DNA from: Mayamaea pseudoterrestris | Lineage: Eukaryota | Assembly (NCBI GenBank): GCA_027923505.1 | Contig: BROI01000001.1 | Coordinates: 248,001-312,000 of the forward strand | Direction: 5' to 3' | DNA: 64,000 nucleotides | In this document: one piece after another, positions 18,921 through 59,989 of the stretch | How positions within the stretch are numbered: position 1 is the first letter of the stretch | Layout of the letters: every line of letters begins with the position of its first letter | Made by a program: the position numbers and the translations under genes | Notes under the pieces: generated by a model | Told to the model about the DNA's origin: nothing | Seen by the model: the letters and a program-made list of their open reading frames with translations, nothing else | The model's database searches: none

Positions 18921-21900
18921 ATGTCGGACCAAGCGAATGGCTCGAAGGAGGAGGAAACGGATCATGCTGCAAACGATGCGAGTCCACTGACTGATGCCTC
19001 TGTAGTCGAGGAAGAAGAAGTTGAGTTTGCGGCAAACGACGAGGATGTAGAGCAAACCATGGCGGAATTACTACCAGTCATGACGCACGAAGCAGGAGCG
19101 ACTGCAGAGACGCAGGATAGTGAAGCAGCAGCAGCAAAGCCGGACGACGAGGAGAGCCAAACCATCCAACCTGCAGGCGGCAGCGACGACGTTTCTTTAG
19201 CACGATCTGCTGAAACTGCAGCTGAAGAAGGTGAAGGTTCATCGACCGATCAAGCAAACAAAGCTATTACTGGCGACGACGACGAAGAAGAAGCCGTCAT
19301 GGTGGAGAATGACGTGATTGCAGCCGAGGCGCTCGTGGCGGCCGAGTCATCCGGACCTTCCGGCTCGTGGCTTGGATCTTGGTGGAGTGGTGGGAATACT
19401 ACAAGCAATGCAGAGACGGTGAACGAAGCAGAAACTGGTACAATTTCTGCTGAAGATGGCGAGGAAAAGGATTTAATTGTTGCTGCAAACGATGATGCCG
19501 CCGCGTCTCCCGCTCGCAGAACGAAACCTCCCAAGCGAGAGGCACCTCCTACGCAGACGTCACCAGGCACTGCAACGGAAGCAACGCAAGCTGTCACTGA
19601 CGCTGCTACCGCTCTCACCATTGACACTGAAAATGAAGAAGCATCTCAAGAGCCTCGACCACCCAAACCGCAACTCAACGAAGCGGATCAGTCAGCCTTG
19701 GACGAAGCCTTTGAGCATCAGCAGCAGCAACAGCAAAATGACAGTGACAACACGACAGAAAATGACAATGACGACGACGACATGCCTCGGACACGTGGAC
19801 TTGGTCGCATTCCCAAGCAAACGCTCATTCCAAACGCCGATGTGGCGTTGCGTCTCCTGCGCAAGTTTGCCTGCAAGACGAGACATAAAATTACCACAAC
19901 ATATGGTGGAGGCAAGCCACGATCCATTGTTTCCTATATCATGATGATTAAAAAGTCGAACCAGCGAGAGGATGCCACCTTTGTCGCCTATCGCGACTTG
20001 ATGCAAGTCTTGTGGGACGACGTGGACAAGGATCCCGAGGAATACTACTACAATCACTTTTTGCAGCAGCAGCCCGACGGTATAGATGGTAACATTAGCT
20101 ATCAGTACCAAGATCATCATCATCAAGACGACTACGAGGAGCAATACATTGTCGGATCTGTCTTGGGTGACTATCCGGGCGATGACATGACGCGTGCCCG
20201 AAAAGCCATTGCTGCCTTTGTGCACTTGGCCGGACTGTGGGGACACGCCAGTTCGTGGTACTTGGAGCCGAGCGGTGGAAGCAACCACCCGCATGCACAT
20301 TCTGGTCCGCCGTCGACAAGCATGATGAATCAAACAACCTTTTCTGATTTGTTGGCGGCGTGCTGGGATGCGTCGACGACGCTCGTGGCGCATGGGTGTT
20401 TGGACAATGTAGACATTCAAATATTCAACGCTGGAGGCGCAGACAGCAAGCCGGAGGAAATGGCTGCGGTTAATATGCTGGCATTGAGCATTTTTAACAG
20501 CGACTTGACCATGGAGCGCAACGAATTGGCAGCATTAAAGTTTCTATTGACGACTGGCTGTCGCAACATGGGCAATGGACAGGCCTTGTTGCGAGGCAGT
20601 CACTTGCTGCAGACAATTCGAACCTTGTATCACATTTACTTGACGACGGAGAGTCAGTCGAACAAGACCACTGCCAAGGCGTCGCTGCAGCAGTTGGTGT
20701 CGAGCGTATTCGCTCGCGTTATACAAACGGATTTGGAGGAGCAGCTGGAACGAACGGCGGATGGCTTTCCGTCGGAGAATCACCGCGATGCCTTTTTGGT
20801 GCTGCGAGCCATTTGCAAATTGAGCATGCGCAATCTTCCAGACCCGAGCTCGGGAATGCATAGTCATATTGGTATTGCCAGCAGTGGCAGCAACGCTACT
20901 TGGAACGGCATGGATGGCGATTCGTCGCAGAGAGGCTTGGATGCTTTGAGTGATGCTCATCCTTCGATGCCGCCCATGACGCAGGAACATGCCGAGCTCA
21001 TTTACACGGCCGCCATTCATCCGGCGCTTGAATCCAAATTGCTGGCGCTTGATTTGATTTTCTACGTTCTTGACAATACTAGCTTTTCGCGCGGATTCAT
21101 TACGCGAGCAGGCTCGCAGTTCCATGCTGCCGTTCGCAACTATTTGTGCGTGTCACTGTTAAAGAACTGCACGTCGGGCGATACACAGGTTGTCAACGTC
21201 AGTCTACGGCTGTTTGTTCCGCTTGTGCGCAGCTTTCGGACGATTCTCAAGAATGAGATTGAAGCATTTGTCACGAACGTTTTCTTTGTCATTTTGGATT
21301 CCAAGAATAGTCCAGCCGAGCATAAAAGTATTGTTGTGAATACTTTTGAGGAGATTTGCTCGGATCCATCTACGCTTGCTGAGATTTTTCTGAATTATGA
21401 TTGCGATCTCAGTGCGGTCGATTTATTTCATCGGATCGTCAACACCTTGTCCAAGATTGCACGCACTGGGTTGCAACAGGAACAGAGGAACAGCGGCATT
21501 GGTTTTATGGGTGGTGCGAGCGCGGCGCGGCAGGAACGCGAGCGGAGCGAGAGCAGAGAATTAAGACTAGATGCCATGAAGGCACTTCGACAGGTGTTGG
21601 CCAGTCTGCATGCCAGTAGTGTGGAGCCTATGGCGCGCAGAGACTCCTTCCATGGCGCTGAAAATGACATAGAAGGTGACGTTGCGAGCGCCATGTCCCG
21701 AGACACGGACGGAGGCATGCCGGCTTCGCCTTCCAGAGAGTCGGCCGTCGATTCAAGTGGGCAGAAGCTAGTCGACATTTACGACTCTAAACGGAAGCGC
21801 CGGGAGGAAGCATCAGAGGTTATTCTTCGGTTTAATCAGAAGCCCTCTGCAGGTATCTCGTATGCAATCAAGTGTGGTCATGTAGACGGTGATGATGCTG

Positions 21901-24900
21901 CAGATGTCGCCCAGTTCCTCTTGAAAAACAAGGACAATTTTGAGAAGGCCATGATCGGAGAGTACCTAGGGCGCGAGCCTGAGTACCAAGGAGGGTTTTC
22001 TTTGAAAGTTCTCCATGAGTACGTTCGCCTTATTGACTTTGAGGGACTCGGTTTTGATGATGGCATTAGATTGTTTTTAAGTGGGTTTCGTCTTCCTGGC
22101 GAGGCTCAAAAGGTAAATTAATGACAGGATTGTAGGAACAGTGTTCATGTCCAGCGTCCTTACCGCTGCTTCGCCATCTTTAACAGATTGACCGTATCAT
22201 GGAAAAATTTGCAGAGCGATACACGGAGCAGAATCCTTTAGTCTTTCCCAGTGCCGATACCGCCTTCATCTTGGCATTTTCAGTCATCATGTTGAACACT
22301 GATCTCCACAATCCTGCAATCAAGGAAGACCGGCGAATGACGAAGGATGGATTTGTACGAAATAATCGAGGAATTTGTGACGGTCAGGATTTGCCTGAGG
22401 AGTTATTGCATAGCATTTTTGATCGTATCAAGGAGAACCCCATCAGTTTGAAGGAGGATGACGAGGCAAGACAGCGAGTGGGGAAGCCGAGCGGCGGAAT
22501 TGCATCTTCGCTCGGTCCAGCGTCTTTTTTTGCGAGTCACTACGAAGAAATGGATCGTGCTCGAGAAAGTAATTTTCAAAAAGAGAGAGACCATATAGTG
22601 CGTACAACTGAGGCACTTTTGAAACGCCGGCGCCACGGCCAAGATCATTCGTCAAGCAAGTTACAAAGCAAGTCACGACCAGAGAAACAACCGAGACCGA
22701 TTTCGCGATTTGTTCGCACAGAAGATAGTGGTCTTCGTGACGAATACGTGTCTCCAATGTTTGATGTGGCGTGGGGAGCTGCTCTGGCTGCCTTCTCTAC
22801 CGCCATGGAGTCGGCTAACGGGACGGTCGGTGCACTCATCGCCATTGCGTCAGACGAAGAGCTTGAATTTGCTGCTGAAAATGCGGCGGAGACAATTGAA
22901 GTCTGTTTGACTGGATTCAGATTTGCAATATGCACTGCGGGTTTATGCGGCAATCACGTTGCGCGAGACGCCTTTGTTCTCGCCCTGAGTCGTTTTTCAC
23001 AGCTTGGAACTGGTGCACTCCTGGAACCACGTCATGTCCGCTGCATTCAGACGATGATGAGTTTGGCGCGTGAAGATGGCGAGCTACTCGGTCCATCCTG
23101 GGAACACTTCTTTAGAGCACTCAGCGAAATCAACCGCTTTCATCAGCTCTTCAACATAATGGCGCGCAACGACAGGGCAGCTGCGGCAGCGGCTGCAAGG
23201 CGTCAGAAAAAGCGAGACGAACGAGAAAGGAGGCGACGTGATCGTGAGGCACGTCGAGCGGCAGAAGAAGAAGGAGATTCTGTTACCGATGCTGGTGCGT
23301 CGGAAGGATTTGAAGACGAGAGCGAAACTGATGATTCACTTGCAGAGTCTGGTCTTTTTGACGAGGCTGATGACTTTCCGTTTGAAGAAGATATGGATGC
23401 AAGAGCAATCGACGAATCCAATGCTCGCGTTGTGTACGACGCCGTGTCCGAGACGGTAATTGAGGCAATTTACGAAAGGTCATCGTCTCTCAGTGAGCAG
23501 GCGATCAAGGATTTCACCAAGCAGCTCTGCTTTGTTTCTCGAAGTGAAATTTCTGTTGGAGGTGCCAACCTTCTTTACAATAATAAGGGTGGCGACCAGT
23601 TTCACCATAATCAGGTAAATATATACTGCCTACAAAAGCTTGTCGAAGTTGCGCACTACAACATGGAATCGCGTTCGCGCCTGGTGTTTTCCGACCTCTG
23701 GACGATTGTGGCTGATCATTTGACCTTTGCAGCTTTGCATTTTAACCCTGCCATTGCGATGTATGCAGTCGATTCGTTTCGGCAGCTGAGTATTCAGTAC
23801 TTAAAGAGGGACGAGCTTGAGGTATTTGAGTTCCAAAAGCGCTTTTTGAAGCCACTTGACGTTATCATGGCTCGCAGCGAACAGGTTAGCACGAAGGAAC
23901 TCTTGCTAAATTGTGTTGATCGAATCATTCTTGTTTTCAAGACTGATGCATCGACGAGCAGCAGCGGCAATTTAGCGCAACGCAAGGGCGGACTTAGAAG
24001 TGGGTGGATGCCGATCTTGAGTATTCTTGGCCTTGGAGGATTAGATTCAAACCGAGACATAGCCAAGCAGAGCTTTAAAATTCTCATGGACGAGATAAAA
24101 CTCTGCCTCAAGGAAACCGAACATCCTGGAGTTTTGTTAAGCGAGCACTTTGTGGAAACTGTGACAGCTATCTTCATGTTCATAGCCGGCCCTCATGAAG
24201 ACATAGGTCGTAGAGCTTTGGAACATTTGACAAAATTAACCGAGTATCTTGTGAAAGAAGATGTTAGCATGCCCCAAGTGCGTCGGAGAGCTTCGATCAT
24301 ACCTGTGGGTAGTGGCCACGGACCAGGCAACAACATGAACGAAGATCTTGAGCTTTGGTGGCCTATTCTATTGGGGCTCTCGCGCGCTGTGGGCGATTTG
24401 CGTCCAGAGTTACGTTCGAGGGCACTCGAGACATTAATACAAGTGATCACGAGTTATTTCTTCCCTTCCGATCCAGACGTTAATACCACGAAACGCAGAA
24501 CGGCCCACGATGATATTCAAACCCTTCAGATTGTATTTAGAGGCATACTATTTCCAATTTTGGAAAACGCGGAACTCGGCTCGGACGAAGGCGATGTCCC
24601 TGTACTTCCCGAAGACTTTGAGCGCTTTCTTACAAAATTGGACGATCAAAAGACGGAAGGGACCGGAGCCGTGGAGGATGTCACGTCGACTGGTTGGCTT
24701 GAGACGATGTTTGATTCATTCATGGATGCTTGCATCTCTTTGTGTCTGCGATCAATCCTGGTGTTCAAAAAAGACTTGCTCGTCGAGGAGGTTCTTGCCT
24801 TGTTGACCAATTGTCTGATGTCTGATTCGGGTGCGCTGGCGGTTCGTGGCTTGCAACGACTTGAGCAATTCATTACTAGCGACCTCAACTCGAGCAATCT

Positions 24901-26440
24901 GGATGACGAGAAATGGGGTGCCATCAGCCACATGCTACGACGATGCCTTTTTGTTCGCAATCTTCCTCCGATCCGCGCATCTGCGAAAGCCGCCGATGCA
25001 CAGTCAGAAGATGAGGCAACGGTCAAGGCAAACCAAGAAGAATACGAGGAGTCCGTTCAAGAGTTCGTATCGGATGATATACATTTTGCGGACCGCCGAT
25101 ACATTCCCAGCAATGCGACAATGGTGATTGGCATGCTTCTTAGCAGTGATCGCTTCTCGATAGGACTCCGTTGGCGCCTGTTTCTTGTGGCTGGTCTTGG
25201 GCGCGGAATTGTCGAATGGGAGCGCGCGGCGATGATTCTCGAACAAGACGCTAAAGCAAAGGTCACATCAGACATTGTGCCGCCAAGCTACTTTGAGACG
25301 GCGATGTATGGACGCCGATGGATGAATCGATTTATTTTGCAACTCGTATCTACGAAAGAGATTGCCCAAGCGCCGACAGATGCAGACCCCAAGTCCAATC
25401 GCTTTGCAGCGGGCCAAAAGCTCGTCGCTGATGAGACGCAGCGCCTGCTTGCATATTTCCTAAAAAGCGAAACAACTGTAGCACAGTATCAGCACGATGC
25501 ACGAGACGATGCTCGTCATGTCAGATTTACAACGCTCGTCAACGAGTTGCTATCGGGTTACAACAAGATGGACGGCGAGCACTTAAAAGACATTGCGTGG
25601 ATCAATCCAATCCTCCTTGGGACTTGCATCCAGTCAAAGAACGAGGATATTCGTCTAGCTGTACAGAAGCTTGTTCAGCGAACTGCCCCAAAGCCGACTC
25701 CGTATCCTGCTCCAACAACCCCCGAATCTCGTGGGCAGAAATCACCTGCCGCAACTCCAGATGCAACTCAAGAACCGGTTATCGAACAAGAGATCGATGA
25801 AGGCGTTGAACATGTTGTCGAACATGCAGACTCTTTAACAATTGTGGAGGACGCTGATACTTCTTTGGAAGTTTTCGATGCAGTTCAAGCGGATGGCAAT
25901 GCTGAACATCTAAACGAATCGACTCTTGAGCAACAAGACACTAGTGTTGCTAAAGACGAGGATCAAGTAGTTTTTACTGCGGACACTGTATCATCAAATG
26001 GAGACGAGCAGGAACTTGAATTGACGATCGAGAATGTCCAACCACCAAGGCCAAGTAGCCCAGTGGCGACTATTCTTTCGCAACTTCCAGAAGACTACTT
26101 TGAGCGAGCCGAGCTCATGGACTTTGCGCCGCTTGACCAAGTAGCGGAAGCCTTTCGCAAGCCGTCGACGTATGTGTTGGATATTCGTAATGACGATGAA
26201 ATTGAAATGCATGGTCACGTGGACCATCCAAACTGGAAGCAATGCCCAGGAACGCCCGCCGATAATGAACTTTTGTCGACAAACCCCGAGGCATTTGTTC
26301 CAGACAGAAATGCTACTATTATCGTCTACTGCCGGTCGGGCCGCCGAAGCAATCGCGCCAAGAAGGTATTGCTTGAGCAAGGCTACACTGGACTGATTCT
26401 GAACGCTGGCGGCCATGATGACATCAAGACAATTGTTTAA
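18921..26440 (+). CDS. BIG/GBF-type Sec7 ARF guanine-nucleotide exchange factor with C-terminal rhodanese domain; 2 exons 18921-22112, 22187-26440, 2481 aa
   Basis: DCB/HUS motifs (RDAFLVLRAICKLS, FLNYDCD). Removing intron 22113-22186 restores Sec7 FRLPGEAQK|IDRIMEKF. Also IMLNTDLHNP, LQKLVEVAHYNM, YAVDSFRQL, GLRSGW. Terminal YVLDIR...IIVYCRSGRRS...LNAGG. Confidence 0.92.
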
Positions 26441-54465: not shown

Positions 54466-56094
54466 ATGATGCGACGGACGAGACAAGTAGTTCTTTCGAC
54501 TCTACTGAGTCTCTGGGCCTCTGAATGTTGTTTTGTTGTTGGCTTTTCGCCTGCTCCTAGACTCGATTCTTCGTCACAGCAACGAATTGCAACAGCCTCA
54601 CCAAGACGAAAGCAGCAAACATCATCGCCCACTGTACTTCAGCGATCGTTTTATGATGACTTTGACGACGAAGAAAGCTTGGAGAATCAGGATAAGGATG
54701 AAATTATTGATCCAGATTCGCTTGGCGACTGGCGACTCTTTCGACGAAACCTGGCGGCCATGACGGCAACATCGTCTGACTCGTCGTCGCCGTTGCTGGA
54801 TACAAGCGTGCCAGTCAAGACGACGCAGCGGCCTCGATCGGTGAGCAAGCTGAACGAAGAAATTCTCAAGACGCAGAGCGAAAGCTTGCACGAGGAATAC
54901 ACGACGGGTGTCTGGGCGCATACCATTGCGACGGTACGTGAATGGTAAAGGAGTGGACTTGACAGTCGCGTGCATTACGAATATGTCAACGCAGTCATTT
55001 TTCTTGTTTCTTAATGCATCTATTTTATTATCCTCGCTCAGCCCGAAGTTGGCGGCTTGTTGGTTCGATTGCCGCTCGAAGCAGAAATCTTTCGAAACCA
55101 TCGTCACTCGATTACCGGTGCCAAGCTTCACCAGTCACTTCAATCCAAGCGCAAGAACAGCGATGCATTCGTATCCTTTGAACAACCGCATACGTGGTTT
55201 CATAAGGCGCAAAAATTGTTGGAGCGAGAAATGTTTGCGATTGCCGAACTTGGTCAAAATAGCGACGATGGTCACATTGATGCGAGTACACTGAACGACG
55301 AGCGCGCCGAGGTCCTTTCCTTGTACTTGGATCATCAGGAAACGTGGCAGGAGGTTTGTCTTTGTCTGCAGCGTGACGAGAAAAGTGGGATTGCCTCAAC
55401 CTTGGTGTTGAATCGACCAATGGCGTTCAAACTGACGGATCACTTGGCGCGACTGTGCTTGTATGGAACGGAAGAGAGTCTCAAGGGCAGCACAACTGAC
55501 GAAGTTGATGCCAAACTTGTTAAATTCATGTCAGCGTTTCGGCAAGAGTGCGCCGTTTATGTTGGAGGACCGGATGATCATCACAAGCCGGCCGAGATTG
55601 TGCATGGCATTGCTGGCTTGGCGGGTGCGGTTGAAATTTCACCGGGGACGGGAATTTATCGTGGCGGTCGCGAAGCTGCAATTGACGGAGTGCTCAAGGG
55701 TTTATACAAGCCGTTGGACTTTCGTTTCTTCATGGGTAAGCACAAGTTTGCAAAGTCCATGTTGGATTTGTCGATCGTGCTGGGAAAGTATCAGCCGATT
55801 GCCTGCTCCAGATCGCTAGTCTTAAAGCAATGCATTTCGCTGCCCAAGCCACTTTGGCACGAGGTTCTAGACCTGACAGGGGGCGAAATGAAGGAAATTT
55901 CACGACTTGAGCACAATAAGAAGGGCAGCATGCAGTATGAAATTGTTGAAGAGGATGACGACGAGGATGATGACGATAGTGATGATGAGGAGGTGTACGA
56001 AATAATATTTGAGGACGGGGAGGTAAAAGAACTCAGTGCAGAAGTATTTGAAGAGCTTTTCCCTGCGGATGAAGATGATACGGACGAGTTCTGA
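54466..56094 (+). CDS. AlgH/UPF0301 (DUF179)-like protein, probably plastid-targeted; exons 54466-54933, 55042-56094, 506 aa
   Basis: DWRLFRRNL, WAHTIAT|PEVGGLL after removing intron 54934-55041, LVLNRPM, VYVGGP, DFRFFMG, LWHEVL. Presequence ending VVG-F. Confidence 0.78.
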
Positions 56095-56163
56095 GTGGCT
56101 TGTGAACATCTGACGCTGTGGCATTTTACGGCATCATGGCGATTTACGAGTCTGAAACGTTGG

Positions 56164-56265
56164 ACACAAAAAAGGAGTCTTTTTAATCTAGATTATGCAT
56201 ATTTACACGTTTACACACAAAAAAGGAGTCTTTTTAATCTAGATTATGCATATTTACACGTTTAC
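56164..56265. repeat. Perfect 51-bp tandem duplication (2 copies)
   Basis: ACACAAAAAAGGAGTCTTTTTAATCTAGATTATGCATATTTACACGTTTAC at 56164-56214 and 56215-56265. Confidence 0.97.
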
Positions 56266-56294: not shown

Positions 56295-58238
56295 CTACCG
56301 TAGCAGCGCGACCGGATCGTTGTAGACATCACGAGACTCTCTGATAAAATCACGGTTCACTGTCAACAAAAACTGCGTCCAATGGCGTTCACTTATCACG
56401 CCACCTCCCAGACATTCCACGCCATTGTAGAATACGACGAATTGGCCGGGCGCAAGACCGCCGTCCTTGTCATCTAAGCAAACTCGACCGGACCGGTTAC
56501 CATCGTCGAGGATAAGTGTTCCAGTCACAAGTCTCGGTCCATGCCGAATCTTCATTACGAGGCGACATGATCCAGTCTCATCAGACACTGGAGCGGATTC
56601 AGCAAACCATTGAATATCTTCCACGGTAAACTCGGAGCGAGGCGCGTGAAACATGGTTTCGTCGTACTCGTTGGAGCAAAATACAACGTTTCGTTCCGGA
56701 TCCTTGGCGACAACGTACCACGGTCCTCTCGAAGTCGCCAATGGATGGAGTACCTTACCAATTCCCTTGCGCTGGCCGACAGTATGATACCAAACCCCGC
56801 GATGTTGGCCCAATTTCTCGCCAGTTAAAGCGTCAATAATATCGCCGGGTTTGTCGCCCAGATACGACTTGATAAACTCGTCAAATTTGACCTTGCCCAA
56901 AAAGCAAAGTCCCTGCGAGTCAGGACGATGCCGATTAGGTAACTGGAACTCCTCAGCCAGTTGTCGGACCTCCGCCTTTTGCAAATGCCCAATCGGGAAA
57001 AGCACCCGCTGTAGTTGCGCTTGTGTCAAGGCGCACAAAAAGTAGGATTGATCCTTGATTGGATCAGGCGCTCGCAAAAGACGTACTTGATTGGAGCTCT
57101 CATCGCGGACCACTTGCGCATAGTGGCCAGTGGCAACGTAATCAAAACCTCGACTTTCAATGGCGTCATAAAAGCATCCAAACTTGATGCGTGAGTTGCA
57201 CATGATATCGGGATTGGGCGTTCGTCCCTGTCGAGCTTCCTGCAGAGTATAGGAAATGACGCGGTCCTGATACTCCTTCTGCAGACTCACTTGCTCCAAC
57301 GTGACGCCAGCCTGGTCGCACACGGCTTGACACATGAGAATGTCATCCTCAAAAGGACAGTGTGACCCCAAATGCGCAAGCTCATCCTCGAGCCAAATTT
57401 TAAGGTAAAAGGCAGTGACATTGTAGCCTTGGCGTTTCAATAGATGTAAAGCGACTGAGGAGTCGACGCCACCAGACAGCAACAGTGCGGCAGTTGGAGC
57501 TTGTTTGATGCATGGTATTTGAGATTTGTCTTGCTCTTTGGGCTGCAATTGTTCATTGCTCAATGCATTGGCACTGCCGTCCGAATCCGACAATAACGTT
57601 TGTACTTGATTCTGCACCACCCGAATAATGCCCGCCAGTCCATCGTTGCGTCCTCGACTCAAAGCTTGTCTCAAATGCAGCTTTTCAGCTAGTCTTTCGG
57701 CATGGAGTTGCATGACTTCATCCACCGACTGCTCATTCAAAACGTTGGAAACGACGGCAAGGAGTCCGCGACTCAATAATGAATCTGCTGTTCCCTGAAT
57801 AGTGATTCGGTAATTTCTGTTTTCGCAATCAATAGCGCTTGCTCTTGACAGTTTCGTTTGTACGTGAAGATTGGAAATGCAGGCTGGAACGCGCTCCAAG
57901 GGAGAAGCAATCATGTGTTCGCTGTCATATTCGAATGAAACCTTCTCTTGTTCATCCAGCTGCTTCTTTTGATACCAAACACCTTCCTGCACCAGTCTTC
58001 GTTGAATTTCTCCAATTGACAAGTTTTCAAACTGCTTTGAAGCGTCTTGTAACGCTTGTTCAAGCGATGACGACGAGTCATCGGCATTAAGTAACGAAAA
58101 GGTCGATGCATGATCGGCTCCAAGTCTCAGCAGCGAAGAGGAGGCACTGGCTCGTGTTTTCGTGGCAGATCGCAGCTGGAAGCCATAGCTGATGCTTACA
58201 AATAGTGCTGCGATGTAAACGCAGCGTCGCGGGACCAT
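56295..58238 (-). CDS. mnmA: SufE-like domain fused to tRNA-specific 2-thiouridylase MnmA, probably plastid-targeted
   Basis: MnmA motifs LSGGVDS, TPNPDIMCN, ATGHYA, KDQSYFL, DSQGLCF, TVGQRKG, APGQ. N-terminal SufE-like RVPACIS...GTADSLLSRGLLA...LSRGRNDGL. Presequence ending SYG-F. Confidence 0.92.
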   Translation of the reverse strand: MVPRRCVYIAALFVSISYGFQLRSATKTRASASSSLLRLGADHASTFSLLNADDSSSSLEQALQDASKQFENLSIGEIQRRLVQEGVWYQKKQLDEQEKVSFEYDSEHMIASPLERVPACISNLHVQTKLSRASAIDCENRNYRITIQGTADSLLSRGLLAVVSNVLNEQSVDEVMQLHAERLAEKLHLRQALSRGRNDGLAGIIRVVQNQVQTLLSDSDGSANALSNEQLQPKEQDKSQIPCIKQAPTAALLLSGGVDSSVALHLLKRQGYNVTAFYLKIWLEDELAHLGSHCPFEDDILMCQAVCDQAGVTLEQVSLQKEYQDRVISYTLQEARQGRTPNPDIMCNSRIKFGCFYDAIESRGFDYVATGHYAQVVRDESSNQVRLLRAPDPIKDQSYFLCALTQAQLQRVLFPIGHLQKAEVRQLAEEFQLPNRHRPDSQGLCFLGKVKFDEFIKSYLGDKPGDIIDALTGEKLGQHRGVWYHTVGQRKGIGKVLHPLATSRGPWYVVAKDPERNVVFCSNEYDETMFHAPRSEFTVEDIQWFAESAPVSDETGSCRLVMKIRHGPRLVTGTLILDDGNRSGRVCLDDKDGGLAPGQFVVFYNGVECLGGGVISERHWTQFLLTVNRDFIRESRDVYNDPVALLR

Positions 58239-58480: not shown

Positions 58481-59989
58481 ATGGCAGGAAATCCATCCTC
58501 CAGCAAGACAGCGGCAGCGATCAGCGCTCGCAATCCCCACCACCTGCTGCTCGTTGCGATTCTGCTCAGCTTCACTGCTTCGACAACGAATGCCTTTGTT
58601 CAACATGGAGCAGCAGGTGGTAGAGTAAGAAATAATGAAGCACTTCAGCTATTTCCCCTTCCTATGAGAGTGCTGCACAATCTGCCAATAGCTACAGCAA
58701 TACCAGCATCTTTATCAAGCACTCGCTTATACGGACAAGGATCCGCCGCCGTCGCCAAGGCCATCATCAATACCGGTACACCCATCATTGGCAAGAGCTA
58801 CTCCACGTCCATTGCCGGTAAACTCATGCCACTGATTCGCATGTGCCGGATCGGCGTCAAGGAATTCAAGGCTGTCGGCGCTGCCATTGTTTCCGTCACT
58901 GACTGGCAGGATGTGGTGCTGCTTGTATTCTTGGCCTTTTGCACACCAGCCTTTAACAAGTATCGGGCCAAGGTTTCTAACAATCAGGAAACGACGCGAT
59001 TTGGAATCACCAAGGTGATTTCGGATGTGAGCAAGGTGGCGCTGGCAGTGTACATTGTTGACATTGTGACAGTCATCATGGCCACGCTAGGATTTCCCTT
59101 GCCGCAAAAGTGGAAGGTGAGCGCCGTGTTTACCAAGGTGGCGTATAGTGGTTGGATACTGAGAGAATTCTTGTATTTCAAGTGCCGGCTGCTCTGCAAA
59201 TTCTACAAGGTCAAGCGCGATGAAATGGGTCGCGTTGAAATTCTGGATCGCTTCGTCAATGGCTTTGCCATTTTCATCTATGGATTGTTTCTGGTGGACT
59301 GGTTGTCCCTTGAGCTTGGTTATGCACTCAAATCAATCTTTGGATTGGCGTCCATGTTTTCAGTAGCCTTTACATTGGCATCGAGGGACATTGCTTCCAA
59401 TCTGTTGGCCGGCATTTGGTTGCAGGCCAGCGACAAGGCAGTTCCTGGTGACGCTGTCAAGTTTGGCGAAAATACGTCCGGCGGACTGGTGAGAATGGGC
59501 TGGCTGGAAACATCGCTGCAGGATGGTGAAGGTGCCATTGTCAAGATTCCCAATTCAAATCTGGCAGGCCAAAAGATTAGCAACCTTTCGCGCGTGACCA
59601 AAACTCCTATCAAACAGACCTTGCGGTTCGACTATTCGGACGCCAATAAGATCCCCGAGTTGATTCACGCCATCAAGCAGGAAATCATGGTGTCTTGTAA
59701 AAAGCTCGTTGTGGATGGAAGTCGTCCCTTTCGCGTGCACTTTACCAACTACATGGAGGATCATTTGGAAGTCACCGTCGTGACGCATCACGAGATTAGC
59801 CCCTTGGGTGGCGAGTTCCATGATAACAAGCAAGAATTACTGCTCGCCATCAACCGCGCCGTGAAAAAGACGGGTGTGCAGTTTGCGCAAATGGTCAAAA
59901 TGGAGATTCCCGGCCGACCAGCCTCGTGGAAGGTGGTGCAGCACAAGTCATATCTGGAGAGTGATGTAAATGGAGAGTATTCTAACTAA
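58481..59989 (+). CDS. MscS-family mechanosensitive channel, probably plastid-targeted
   Basis: Several TMs, LASRDIASNLLAG, PGDAV, MGWLET, IPNSNL...ISNLSR. Signal peptide ending TNA-F. Confidence 0.88.
   Translation: MAGNPSSSKTAAAISARNPHHLLLVAILLSFTASTTNAFVQHGAAGGRVRNNEALQLFPLPMRVLHNLPIATAIPASLSSTRLYGQGSAAVAKAIINTGTPIIGKSYSTSIAGKLMPLIRMCRIGVKEFKAVGAAIVSVTDWQDVVLLVFLAFCTPAFNKYRAKVSNNQETTRFGITKVISDVSKVALAVYIVDIVTVIMATLGFPLPQKWKVSAVFTKVAYSGWILREFLYFKCRLLCKFYKVKRDEMGRVEILDRFVNGFAIFIYGLFLVDWLSLELGYALKSIFGLASMFSVAFTLASRDIASNLLAGIWLQASDKAVPGDAVKFGENTSGGLVRMGWLETSLQDGEGAIVKIPNSNLAGQKISNLSRVTKTPIKQTLRFDYSDANKIPELIHAIKQEIMVSCKKLVVDGSRPFRVHFTNYMEDHLEVTVVTHHEISPLGGEFHDNKQELLLAINRAVKKTGVQFAQMVKMEIPGRPASWKVVQHKSYLESDVNGEYSN

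Follow-up and report, generated by a model that had tools for sequence, protein, structure and literature searches.

A SufE-MnmA fusion gene in a diatom nuclear genome: a putative plastid-directed tRNA thiolation enzyme with a proposed sulfur acceptor of its own

The stretch of DNA analysed here (henceforth the window) comprises 64,000 nucleotides of the diatom Mayamaea pseudoterrestris (assembly GCA_027923505.1, contig BROI01000001.1, positions 248,001 to 312,000 of the forward strand) and contains, on the minus strand, a gene whose predicted product joins an N-terminal SufE-type domain to MnmA, an enzyme of tRNA thiolation. The window belongs to the nuclear genome, and the open reading frames (ORFs) surrounding this gene include those of a Sec7/BIG-type guanine nucleotide exchange factor for Arf (ArfGEF), Cwc15, a PP2C protein and a ubiquitin-conjugating enzyme. 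We are almost certain that SufE-MnmA is a genuine fusion gene. Our reading of it, to which we give a probability of roughly 0.6, is that this nuclear diatom gene encodes a plastid-directed enzyme of two modules, SufE and MnmA, in which Cys120 of the SufE module would be a private acceptor of sulfur from the cysteine desulfurase SufS.

The SufE-MnmA gene is a single uninterrupted ORF (56295..58238, minus strand) of 647 amino acids (aa) plus a stop codon at 56295-56297, and it shows no intron signature. Its ATG is the first to follow an in-frame TAA situated 24 nt before it, and the encoded protein could be aligned end to end with 23 orthologues in one alignment and with 56 in another. An earlier model-made reading of the same DNA, produced from the letters and their ORFs with no database search (henceforth the sequence-only reading), had described an intronless 647-aa ORF here, and this description withstood recomputation: the frame is unbroken throughout, the motifs that had been quoted from it (SYG-F, RVPAC, ADSLLSRGL, LSRGRNDGL, SGGVDS, PDIMC and SQGLC) are all present in the translation, and the codon that had been assigned to C120 (57881-57879) agrees with our coordinates.

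In the N-terminal module, residues 113-210 match the Pfam SufE family (PF02657) over profile positions 34-120 of 121, and the score of 50.2 bits (E 2.7e-13) exceeds the cut-off, which is 27. Because the SufE part is divergent in sequence, we also modelled its fold. The model, which covers residues 60-225 and was built from a 51-row alignment, had a predicted local distance difference test (pLDDT) score of 94.0 and a predicted template modelling (pTM) score of 0.89. When it was compared with the PDB using Foldseek, the top matches were SufE of Salmonella/E. coli (3g0m, 1mzg), SufS-bound SufE (8vbs) and CsdE (5eep, 5nq6, 4lw4), found with a probability of 1.00. Target-normalised template modelling (TM) scores were 0.52-0.75 across the eleven best chains shown and 0.56-0.73 for 3g0m, 1mzg, 8vbs and 5eep. 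Ten of the eleven best matches (shown ranks 1-9 and 11) were SufE, CsdE or a SufE-like structural-genomics protein, while IscU chains stood lower in the ranking and were weaker; a sequence search of the PDB found SufE 3g0m at E 6.9e-6. Judged from the model, the SufE part has the SufE fold.

Stand-alone SufE is known to activate SufS by accepting a persulfide on a conserved cysteine. The putative acceptor in the window protein, Cys120, is invariant in all three alignments that we made (24/24, 57/57 and 51/51 rows). In the 24-row and 57-row alignments, which are of diatom type, the residues G149, D152, G158, R197, D199 and G200 are invariant too. G158 and R197 are likewise invariant in the 51-row set, which includes red-algal, brown-algal and Vitrella proteins as well as 9 rows that match Pfam SufE only (133-248 aa, 6 of them of about 140 aa). 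Compared with stand-alone SufE and CsdE (1MZG, 8VBS, 5EEP), the domain thus has the same fold, the same single invariant Cys and the same G-x-x-D...G and S-x-x-R-x-x-G motifs, but it differs from them in having a sequence identity of 14-25%, an insertion after the Cys loop and a fusion partner.

That partner is MnmA. The NCBIfam model TIGR00420 (MnmA) matches residues 251-615 with 367.6 bits against a cut-off of 236.95, covering profile positions 4-351 of 351, and all three MnmA Pfam domains score above their cut-offs, namely tRNA_Me_trans (PF03054; residues 252-449, 241.7 bits), PF20259 (454-522, 72.4 bits) and PF20258 (535-615, 57.3 bits). The SufE and MnmA scores alike lie well outside what chance would give. 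Solved MnmA structures (9hlv, 2hma, 2der) match this part at E ~1e-82, and the D344/C347 and C445 motifs correspond in the alignment to NPDVMCN and DSTGICF in solved MnmA. SGGVDS, D344-x-x-C347 and C445 are invariant in the 24-row and 57-row alignments. As the PP-loop, D344-x-x-C347 and C445 have all been kept, this part is, by its sequence, a complete MnmA of the D type, and its predicted product would be 2-thiouridine at position 34 (s2U34) of tRNA-Lys, -Glu and -Gln. The two modules are connected by a linker of about 22 residues that is of low complexity, poorly conserved and variable in length among orthologues. In a model of the full-length protein (pLDDT 81.1, pTM 0.60) both modules are confident, whereas residues 20-53 and 222-243 are disordered (pLDDT <50). 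A complex prediction for the SufE part with the MnmA part, run without supplied alignments, scored 0.00 and carries no weight either way.

The N-terminus ahead of the SufE domain reads, in order, MVPRR, a hydrophobic core (with a Kyte-Doolittle maximum of 2.25 at residues 7-17), SYG and, after a putative cleavage site, Phe20. A Phe stands at aligned position 20 in 19 of 24 orthologues, the remaining 5 being sequences that lack the N-terminus. Ser, Thr, Ala and Arg abound in residues 20-55, the first 22 of which include no acidic residue. A signal peptide followed by Phe (the ‘ASAFAP’ motif) is what we take to be the mark of diatom plastid presequences, and the N-terminus of SufE-MnmA looks like such a bipartite presequence. 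From these features we consider it likely that the protein works in the plastid.

To find out how widespread the fusion is, we compared the whole protein and its SufE part with sequence collections. Among the 120 relatives listed for the whole protein, 119 carry both the SufE and the MnmA Pfam families; in the one that does not (P0114), the SufE part is nevertheless matched at E 7.6e-22. The closest relatives among the matches listed come from the diatoms Seminavis, Cyclotella, Thalassiosira and Attheya, the best of them with 69% identity. Five ORFs from the Marine Microbial Eukaryote Transcriptome Sequencing Project (MMETSP) carry both domains (P0009, P0038, P0089 and P0110, labelled ‘type:complete’, and P0107, whose label is incomplete after ‘type:complete’), and therefore RNA spans both domains in other diatoms. 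When the SufE part was searched exhaustively by itself, 99 representatives came back at E up to 1e-3. Specifically, a Pfam scan of 92 of these found SufE together with tRNA_Me_trans in 51 (with SufE N-terminal to MnmA, i.e., in the order of the window protein), SufE only in 32 (many of which are short and may be fragments), MnmA only in 1, unrelated repeat proteins in 2 cases and no Pfam match at E up to 1e-6 in 6; the other 7 representatives carry both families according to the whole-protein search. A word-index search with the SufE part alone, limited by its index, gave 3 proteins, all of them already found, and a search of the ESM Atlas with residues 55-300 gave no usable match.

The fusion extends well beyond diatoms. 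When a distant fused representative from Porphyridium purpureum (P0174) was used as the query, the named relatives all carried both families, again with SufE ahead of MnmA, and the fusion was found in 7 named red algae (Porphyridium purpureum, Rhodosorus, Purpureofilum, Gracilaria, Agarophyton, Cyanidium and Galdieria), in the brown algae Discosporangium and Ectocarpus and in the chromerid Vitrella. Three records considered as unfused eukaryotic MnmA (P0230, P0245 and P0321) were rejected, as they start inside the SufE domain, i.e., they are N-terminally truncated. Two further proteins had unusual architectures: one of 1147 aa (P0125) carries a SET domain in front of SufE and MnmA and may be a merged gene model, and one of 1290 aa (P0187) lacks MnmA, its SufE-type domain, which keeps the Cys, standing at the N-terminus before about 1100 low-complexity residues.

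In bacteria, all 80 of the mnmA loci that we kept match the query only from residue 222 onward, and a tblastn search with the SufE part in the flanks of these 80 loci (up to 3 kb per side, less at contig ends) found no match to it, the best E value being 0.49. We then placed the MnmA part in a quick tree (LG+G4). Of its 98 rows, 28 came from eukaryotes, 59 were bacterial loci and 11 were short proteins of bacterial type; loci L061-L080 were cut by choice and L044 was left out for its short match. The 28 rows from eukaryotes, which cover diatoms, red algae, brown algae and Vitrella, fell into one clade, with a Shimodaira-Hasegawa-like approximate likelihood ratio test (SH-aLRT) support of 98. 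The tree leaves the origin of the gene unsettled, because its rows include no cyanobacterial, green-plant, mitochondrial or apicomplexan sequences. The nearest sampled bacterial MnmA relatives (L001-L060, P0256 and P0278-P0327; 50-58% identity) belong to TM6/Babeliales, Bdellovibrionota, Leptospirales, Calditrichota and Verrucomicrobiota metagenome-assembled genomes, and there is no cyanobacterium among these relatives, in a sampling that is biased by the search patterns. Given that the nearest sampled relatives are TM6/Babeliales-like, a non-cyanobacterial descent of the MnmA part is a possibility.

Neither this architecture nor the idea of a relay through it is new, as both are already in print for Toxoplasma and Plasmodium. 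The MnmA of T. gondii (TgMnmA) was described as having a SufE domain together with tRNA_Me_trans domains (Yang 2022, PMC9420914), and that of P. falciparum (PfMnmA) as having a SufE-like structural domain within a 421-aa N-terminal extension (Swift 2023, PMC10219651). The latter study also modelled the corresponding region in MnmA of Babesia, Theileria, Toxoplasma and Eimeria, and proposed a transfer of sulfur from SufS through the SufE domain to MnmA for Plasmodium (PMC10219651). By contrast, a 2021 inventory of plastid Fe-S factors in algae names SUFE1, SUFE2 and SUFE3 only, and its main text contains neither ‘tRNA’ nor ‘thiouridylase’ (PMC8003979). Our literature search, in which papers were judged partly from titles and the beginnings of abstracts, found no description of a SufE-MnmA fusion in algae and no survey of a single red-lineage origin of SufE-MnmA. 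Our additions are modest: the spread of the fusion over red algae and lineages with red-derived plastids, the single MnmA clade that its carriers form, and its apparent absence from algal Fe-S inventories.

The sequence-only reading had taken the architecture to be undescribed, and in this it was mistaken, given the published accounts of TgMnmA (PMC9420914) and of PfMnmA with the same relay (PMC10219651), which by its own standard take the novelty away. The rest of its interpretation, i.e., the architecture and its likely meaning, held up in silico. It had pointed to the fold of residues ~60-215 and to the conservation of the acceptor Cys in orthologues as the places where the proposal could fail, and both came out in its favour. 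Hidden Markov Model (HMM) scans bore out the SufE and tRNA_Me_trans domains and an MnmA complete with all its catalytic motifs, the N-terminus looks like the signal peptide that had been proposed, and the fusion was located in diatoms, brown algae, red algae and Vitrella but, within the flanks searched, at none of the 80 mnmA loci from bacteria.

The closest known counterparts are the apicoplast enzymes of T. gondii (TGGT1_309110) and P. falciparum. As in the window protein, a D-type MnmA follows a SufE or SufE-like domain at the N-terminus of one nuclear-encoded polypeptide, which is plastid-directed in these parasites and probably so in the diatom, and Vitrella, a photosynthetic relative of apicomplexans, shares the MnmA clade with the window protein. 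However, the diatom protein has 647 aa, whereas PfMnmA has 1084 residues and the MnmA region of TgMnmA extends up to residue 1598; its SufE domain scores above the Pfam cut-off, whereas that of PfMnmA was recognised by structure modelling; and its presequence looks to be of the diatom type. A different parallel is offered by SUFE3 (SufE fused to the quinolinate synthase NadA; Arabidopsis and the green lineage), in which a plastid SufE domain is likewise tethered to one client and provides it with private sulfur from SufS (PMC8003979). There the client is NadA and the sulfur enters its [4Fe-4S] cluster, whereas the client in the window protein would be MnmA, and reports of SUFE3 come mostly from the green lineage (PMC8003979), whereas the named carriers of SufE-MnmA belong to the red lineage. 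The NadA family is not among the Pfam matches of the window protein.

Bacterial routes to the same end reaction use the same type of MnmA (PP-loop, DxxC...C) and a cysteine desulfurase as the donor. In E. coli, five Tus carriers lead to MnmA (IscS-TusA-TusBCD-TusE-MnmA), and in B. subtilis a dedicated desulfurase, YrvO, serves MnmA with no carrier at all, whereas the window enzyme would have one SufE-type carrier built in. Published work further indicates that E. coli MnmA cannot use SufS (PMC10219651).

From the domains, fold, conserved residues and phyletic spread described above, we infer that SufS is the donor and that sulfur passes from Cys120 to MnmA in the plastid. Under this mechanism, the plastid cysteine desulfurase SufS would load a persulfide onto Cys120, after which the tethered SufE domain would swing to the MnmA active site (D344, C347 and C445), and the sulfur would replace the C2 oxygen of ATP-activated U34 in plastid tRNA-Lys, -Glu and -Gln, with the final transfer proceeding either via a Cys persulfide or via an Fe-S cluster. 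The SufE domain would then be MnmA's private acceptor, beside a stand-alone SUFE1 that feeds SufBCD. Such a private carrier fits because a separate SUFE1 was present in all 25 microalgae analysed in the inventory (PMC8003979) and because stand-alone SufE is dispensable for the apicoplast; in P. falciparum, apicoplast maintenance needs SufS and MnmA and not stand-alone SufE (PMC10219651). By analogy, these genetics are consistent with a route from SufS to MnmA that has no need for stand-alone SufE. On balance we favour a relay through Cys120 of this form.

Several observations weigh against this reading. The NCBIfam SufE equivalog model (PRK09296) gave 37.3 bits and did not reach its cut-off of 160, nor did the CsdE model (23.2 bits vs 136.4), and ordinary stand-alone SufE proteins, which have ~140 aa and 117-151 Pfam bits, match the SufE part only at E 7.7e-5 or weaker; by these scores the domain is a divergent SufE-type domain and not a SufE equivalog. 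The full-length model (pTM 0.60) gives no confident arrangement of the domains relative to each other, plastid targeting was called by inspection and a hydropathy plot without a signal-peptide predictor, and Swift et al. consider that SufS may hand sulfur directly to MnmA (PMC10219651). One alternative is that the SufE domain mainly docks and activates SufS, whose persulfide would go straight to the MnmA cysteines as in the YrvO-MnmA pair of B. subtilis. SufE does enhance the activity of SufS, about 17-fold for the P. falciparum pair (PMC10219651). Yet the simplest account of a Cys120 that is invariant over red algae, brown algae, diatoms and Vitrella is that it carries sulfur covalently. Moreover, in stand-alone SufE the activation itself proceeds via persulfide acceptance on that Cys, and we regard a mere docking role as improbable.

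Somewhat better placed, if still unlikely, is the alternative that the SufE domain builds or repairs a [4Fe-4S] cluster on MnmA (with D344, C347 and C445 as ligands) and so supplies cluster sulfur and not tRNA sulfur. It draws on the analogy with SUFE3, whose SufE domain was ‘suggested’ to be dedicated to the [4Fe-4S] cluster of NadA (PMC8003979), and on a 2026 review according to which E. coli D-type MnmA can hold a labile Fe-S cluster with two Cys and one Asp as ligands (PMC13066941); the same three ligand residues are invariant in our SufE-MnmA alignments of 24 and 57 rows. However, whether D-type MnmA needs a cluster is a matter of continuing debate (the same review cites a ‘critical review’ of how 2-thiouridine is formed in E. 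coli; PMC13066941), and the MnmA of B. subtilis took the place of PfMnmA in the apicoplast despite lacking a SufE domain (PMC10219651). The cluster route and the tRNA-sulfur route are neither separable by sequence nor mutually exclusive. We consider it very improbable that the fusion is an ORF artefact across two adjacent genes, or that the protein is mitochondrial or cytosolic. While the location was judged from inspection of the N-terminus, the frame is continuous and free of stops, both domains recur together in nearly all relatives listed (transcriptome ORFs included) and in distant lineages, the signal-peptide-like start is followed by Phe in most orthologues, and the Toxoplasma counterpart, TgMnmA, was localised to the apicoplast (Yang 2022, PMC9420914).

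A wider and more tentative scenario can also be drawn. The fusion may have arisen once, in or before the red-algal ancestor, and may have spread with the red plastid to ochrophytes, chromerids and apicomplexans as a red-lineage counterpart of the mostly green-lineage SUFE3, so that plastid wobble-uridine thiolation would draw on SufS via its own carrier, independently of SUFE1. As a discovery the gene is ordinary, the fusion being widespread, both domains already in databases and the idea published. The way in which plastid tRNA thiolation is fed with sulfur is only partly worked out, and recombinant PfMnmA was not obtainable, its gene being AT-rich and of low complexity (PMC10219651). The diatom and red-algal versions, which are compact and of ordinary composition, should be easier material than PfMnmA for studying the relay from SufS through the SufE domain to MnmA in vitro, and should also be useful for asking whether D-type MnmA works through a persulfide or through an Fe-S cluster. 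The features of the gene are listed in Table 1.

Table 1. Coordinates of the SufE-MnmA gene and of its parts within the window, with the basis for each assignment.
Feature	Position	Strand	Basis
Whole gene	56295..58238	-	ORF, recomputed coordinates, full-length orthologue alignments
Signal-peptide-like segment, residues 1-19 (MVPRR, hydrophobic core, SYG)	58182..58238	-	Hydropathy, alignment
Transit-peptide-like segment, residues 20-55	58074..58181	-	Composition; pLDDT <50 at residues 20-53
SufE-fold domain, residues 59-221	57576..58064	-	Pfam, PDB sequence match, fold match
Pfam SufE match, residues 113-210	57609-57902	-	PF02657
Cys120 codon, putative persulfide acceptor in RVPAC	57879..57881	-	Invariant in three alignments
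Flexible linker, residues 222-243	57510..57575	-	pLDDT <50; gappy and length-variable in alignment
MnmA catalytic HUP (PP-loop ATPase) domain, residues 252-449	56892..57485	-	Pfam, NCBIfam
SGGVDS, residues 255-260	57459-57476	-	Recomputed coordinates
D344-I-M-C347 (DIMC)	57198-57209	-	Recomputed coordinates
C445	56904-56906	-	Recomputed coordinates
MnmA PRC-barrel domain, residues 454-522	56673..56879	-	Pfam, 72.4 bits
MnmA C-terminal beta-barrel domain, residues 535-615	56394..56636	-	Pfam, 57.3 bits

The gene is flanked by an AlgH-like DUF179 protein with an acidic tail (55231-56094, plus strand) and by an MscS-type mechanosensitive channel protein (58481-59989, plus strand), neither of which is evidently connected with the metabolism of sulfur or of tRNA. 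Contigs of 130-654 nt were available from four sequencing runs (of one study and of unknown kind); none of them spans the whole gene stretch and none shows a joint inside the ORF, and they are uninformative on expression or transcript continuity. Within the gene, at 56484-56775 and 57215-57542, single-base variants fall into two sets among these contigs, which would fit two haplotypes or strains. One contig of run X1 skips 51 nt at 56163-56215, in the spacer that separates the AlgH-like gene from the 3' end of SufE-MnmA; 51 letters fit at both edges of the skip, which points to a tandem repeat that varies in length.

Elsewhere in the window, the BIG/Sec7-type ArfGEF (18921-26440, plus strand) is encoded in two ORFs, 18921-22121 and 22199-26440, and its Sec7 domain is divided by the 77-nt gap between them, which is probably an intron. 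The second of these ORFs ends with a Rhodanese-like domain (residues 1313-1407, 33.2 bits), which is unusual for an ArfGEF.

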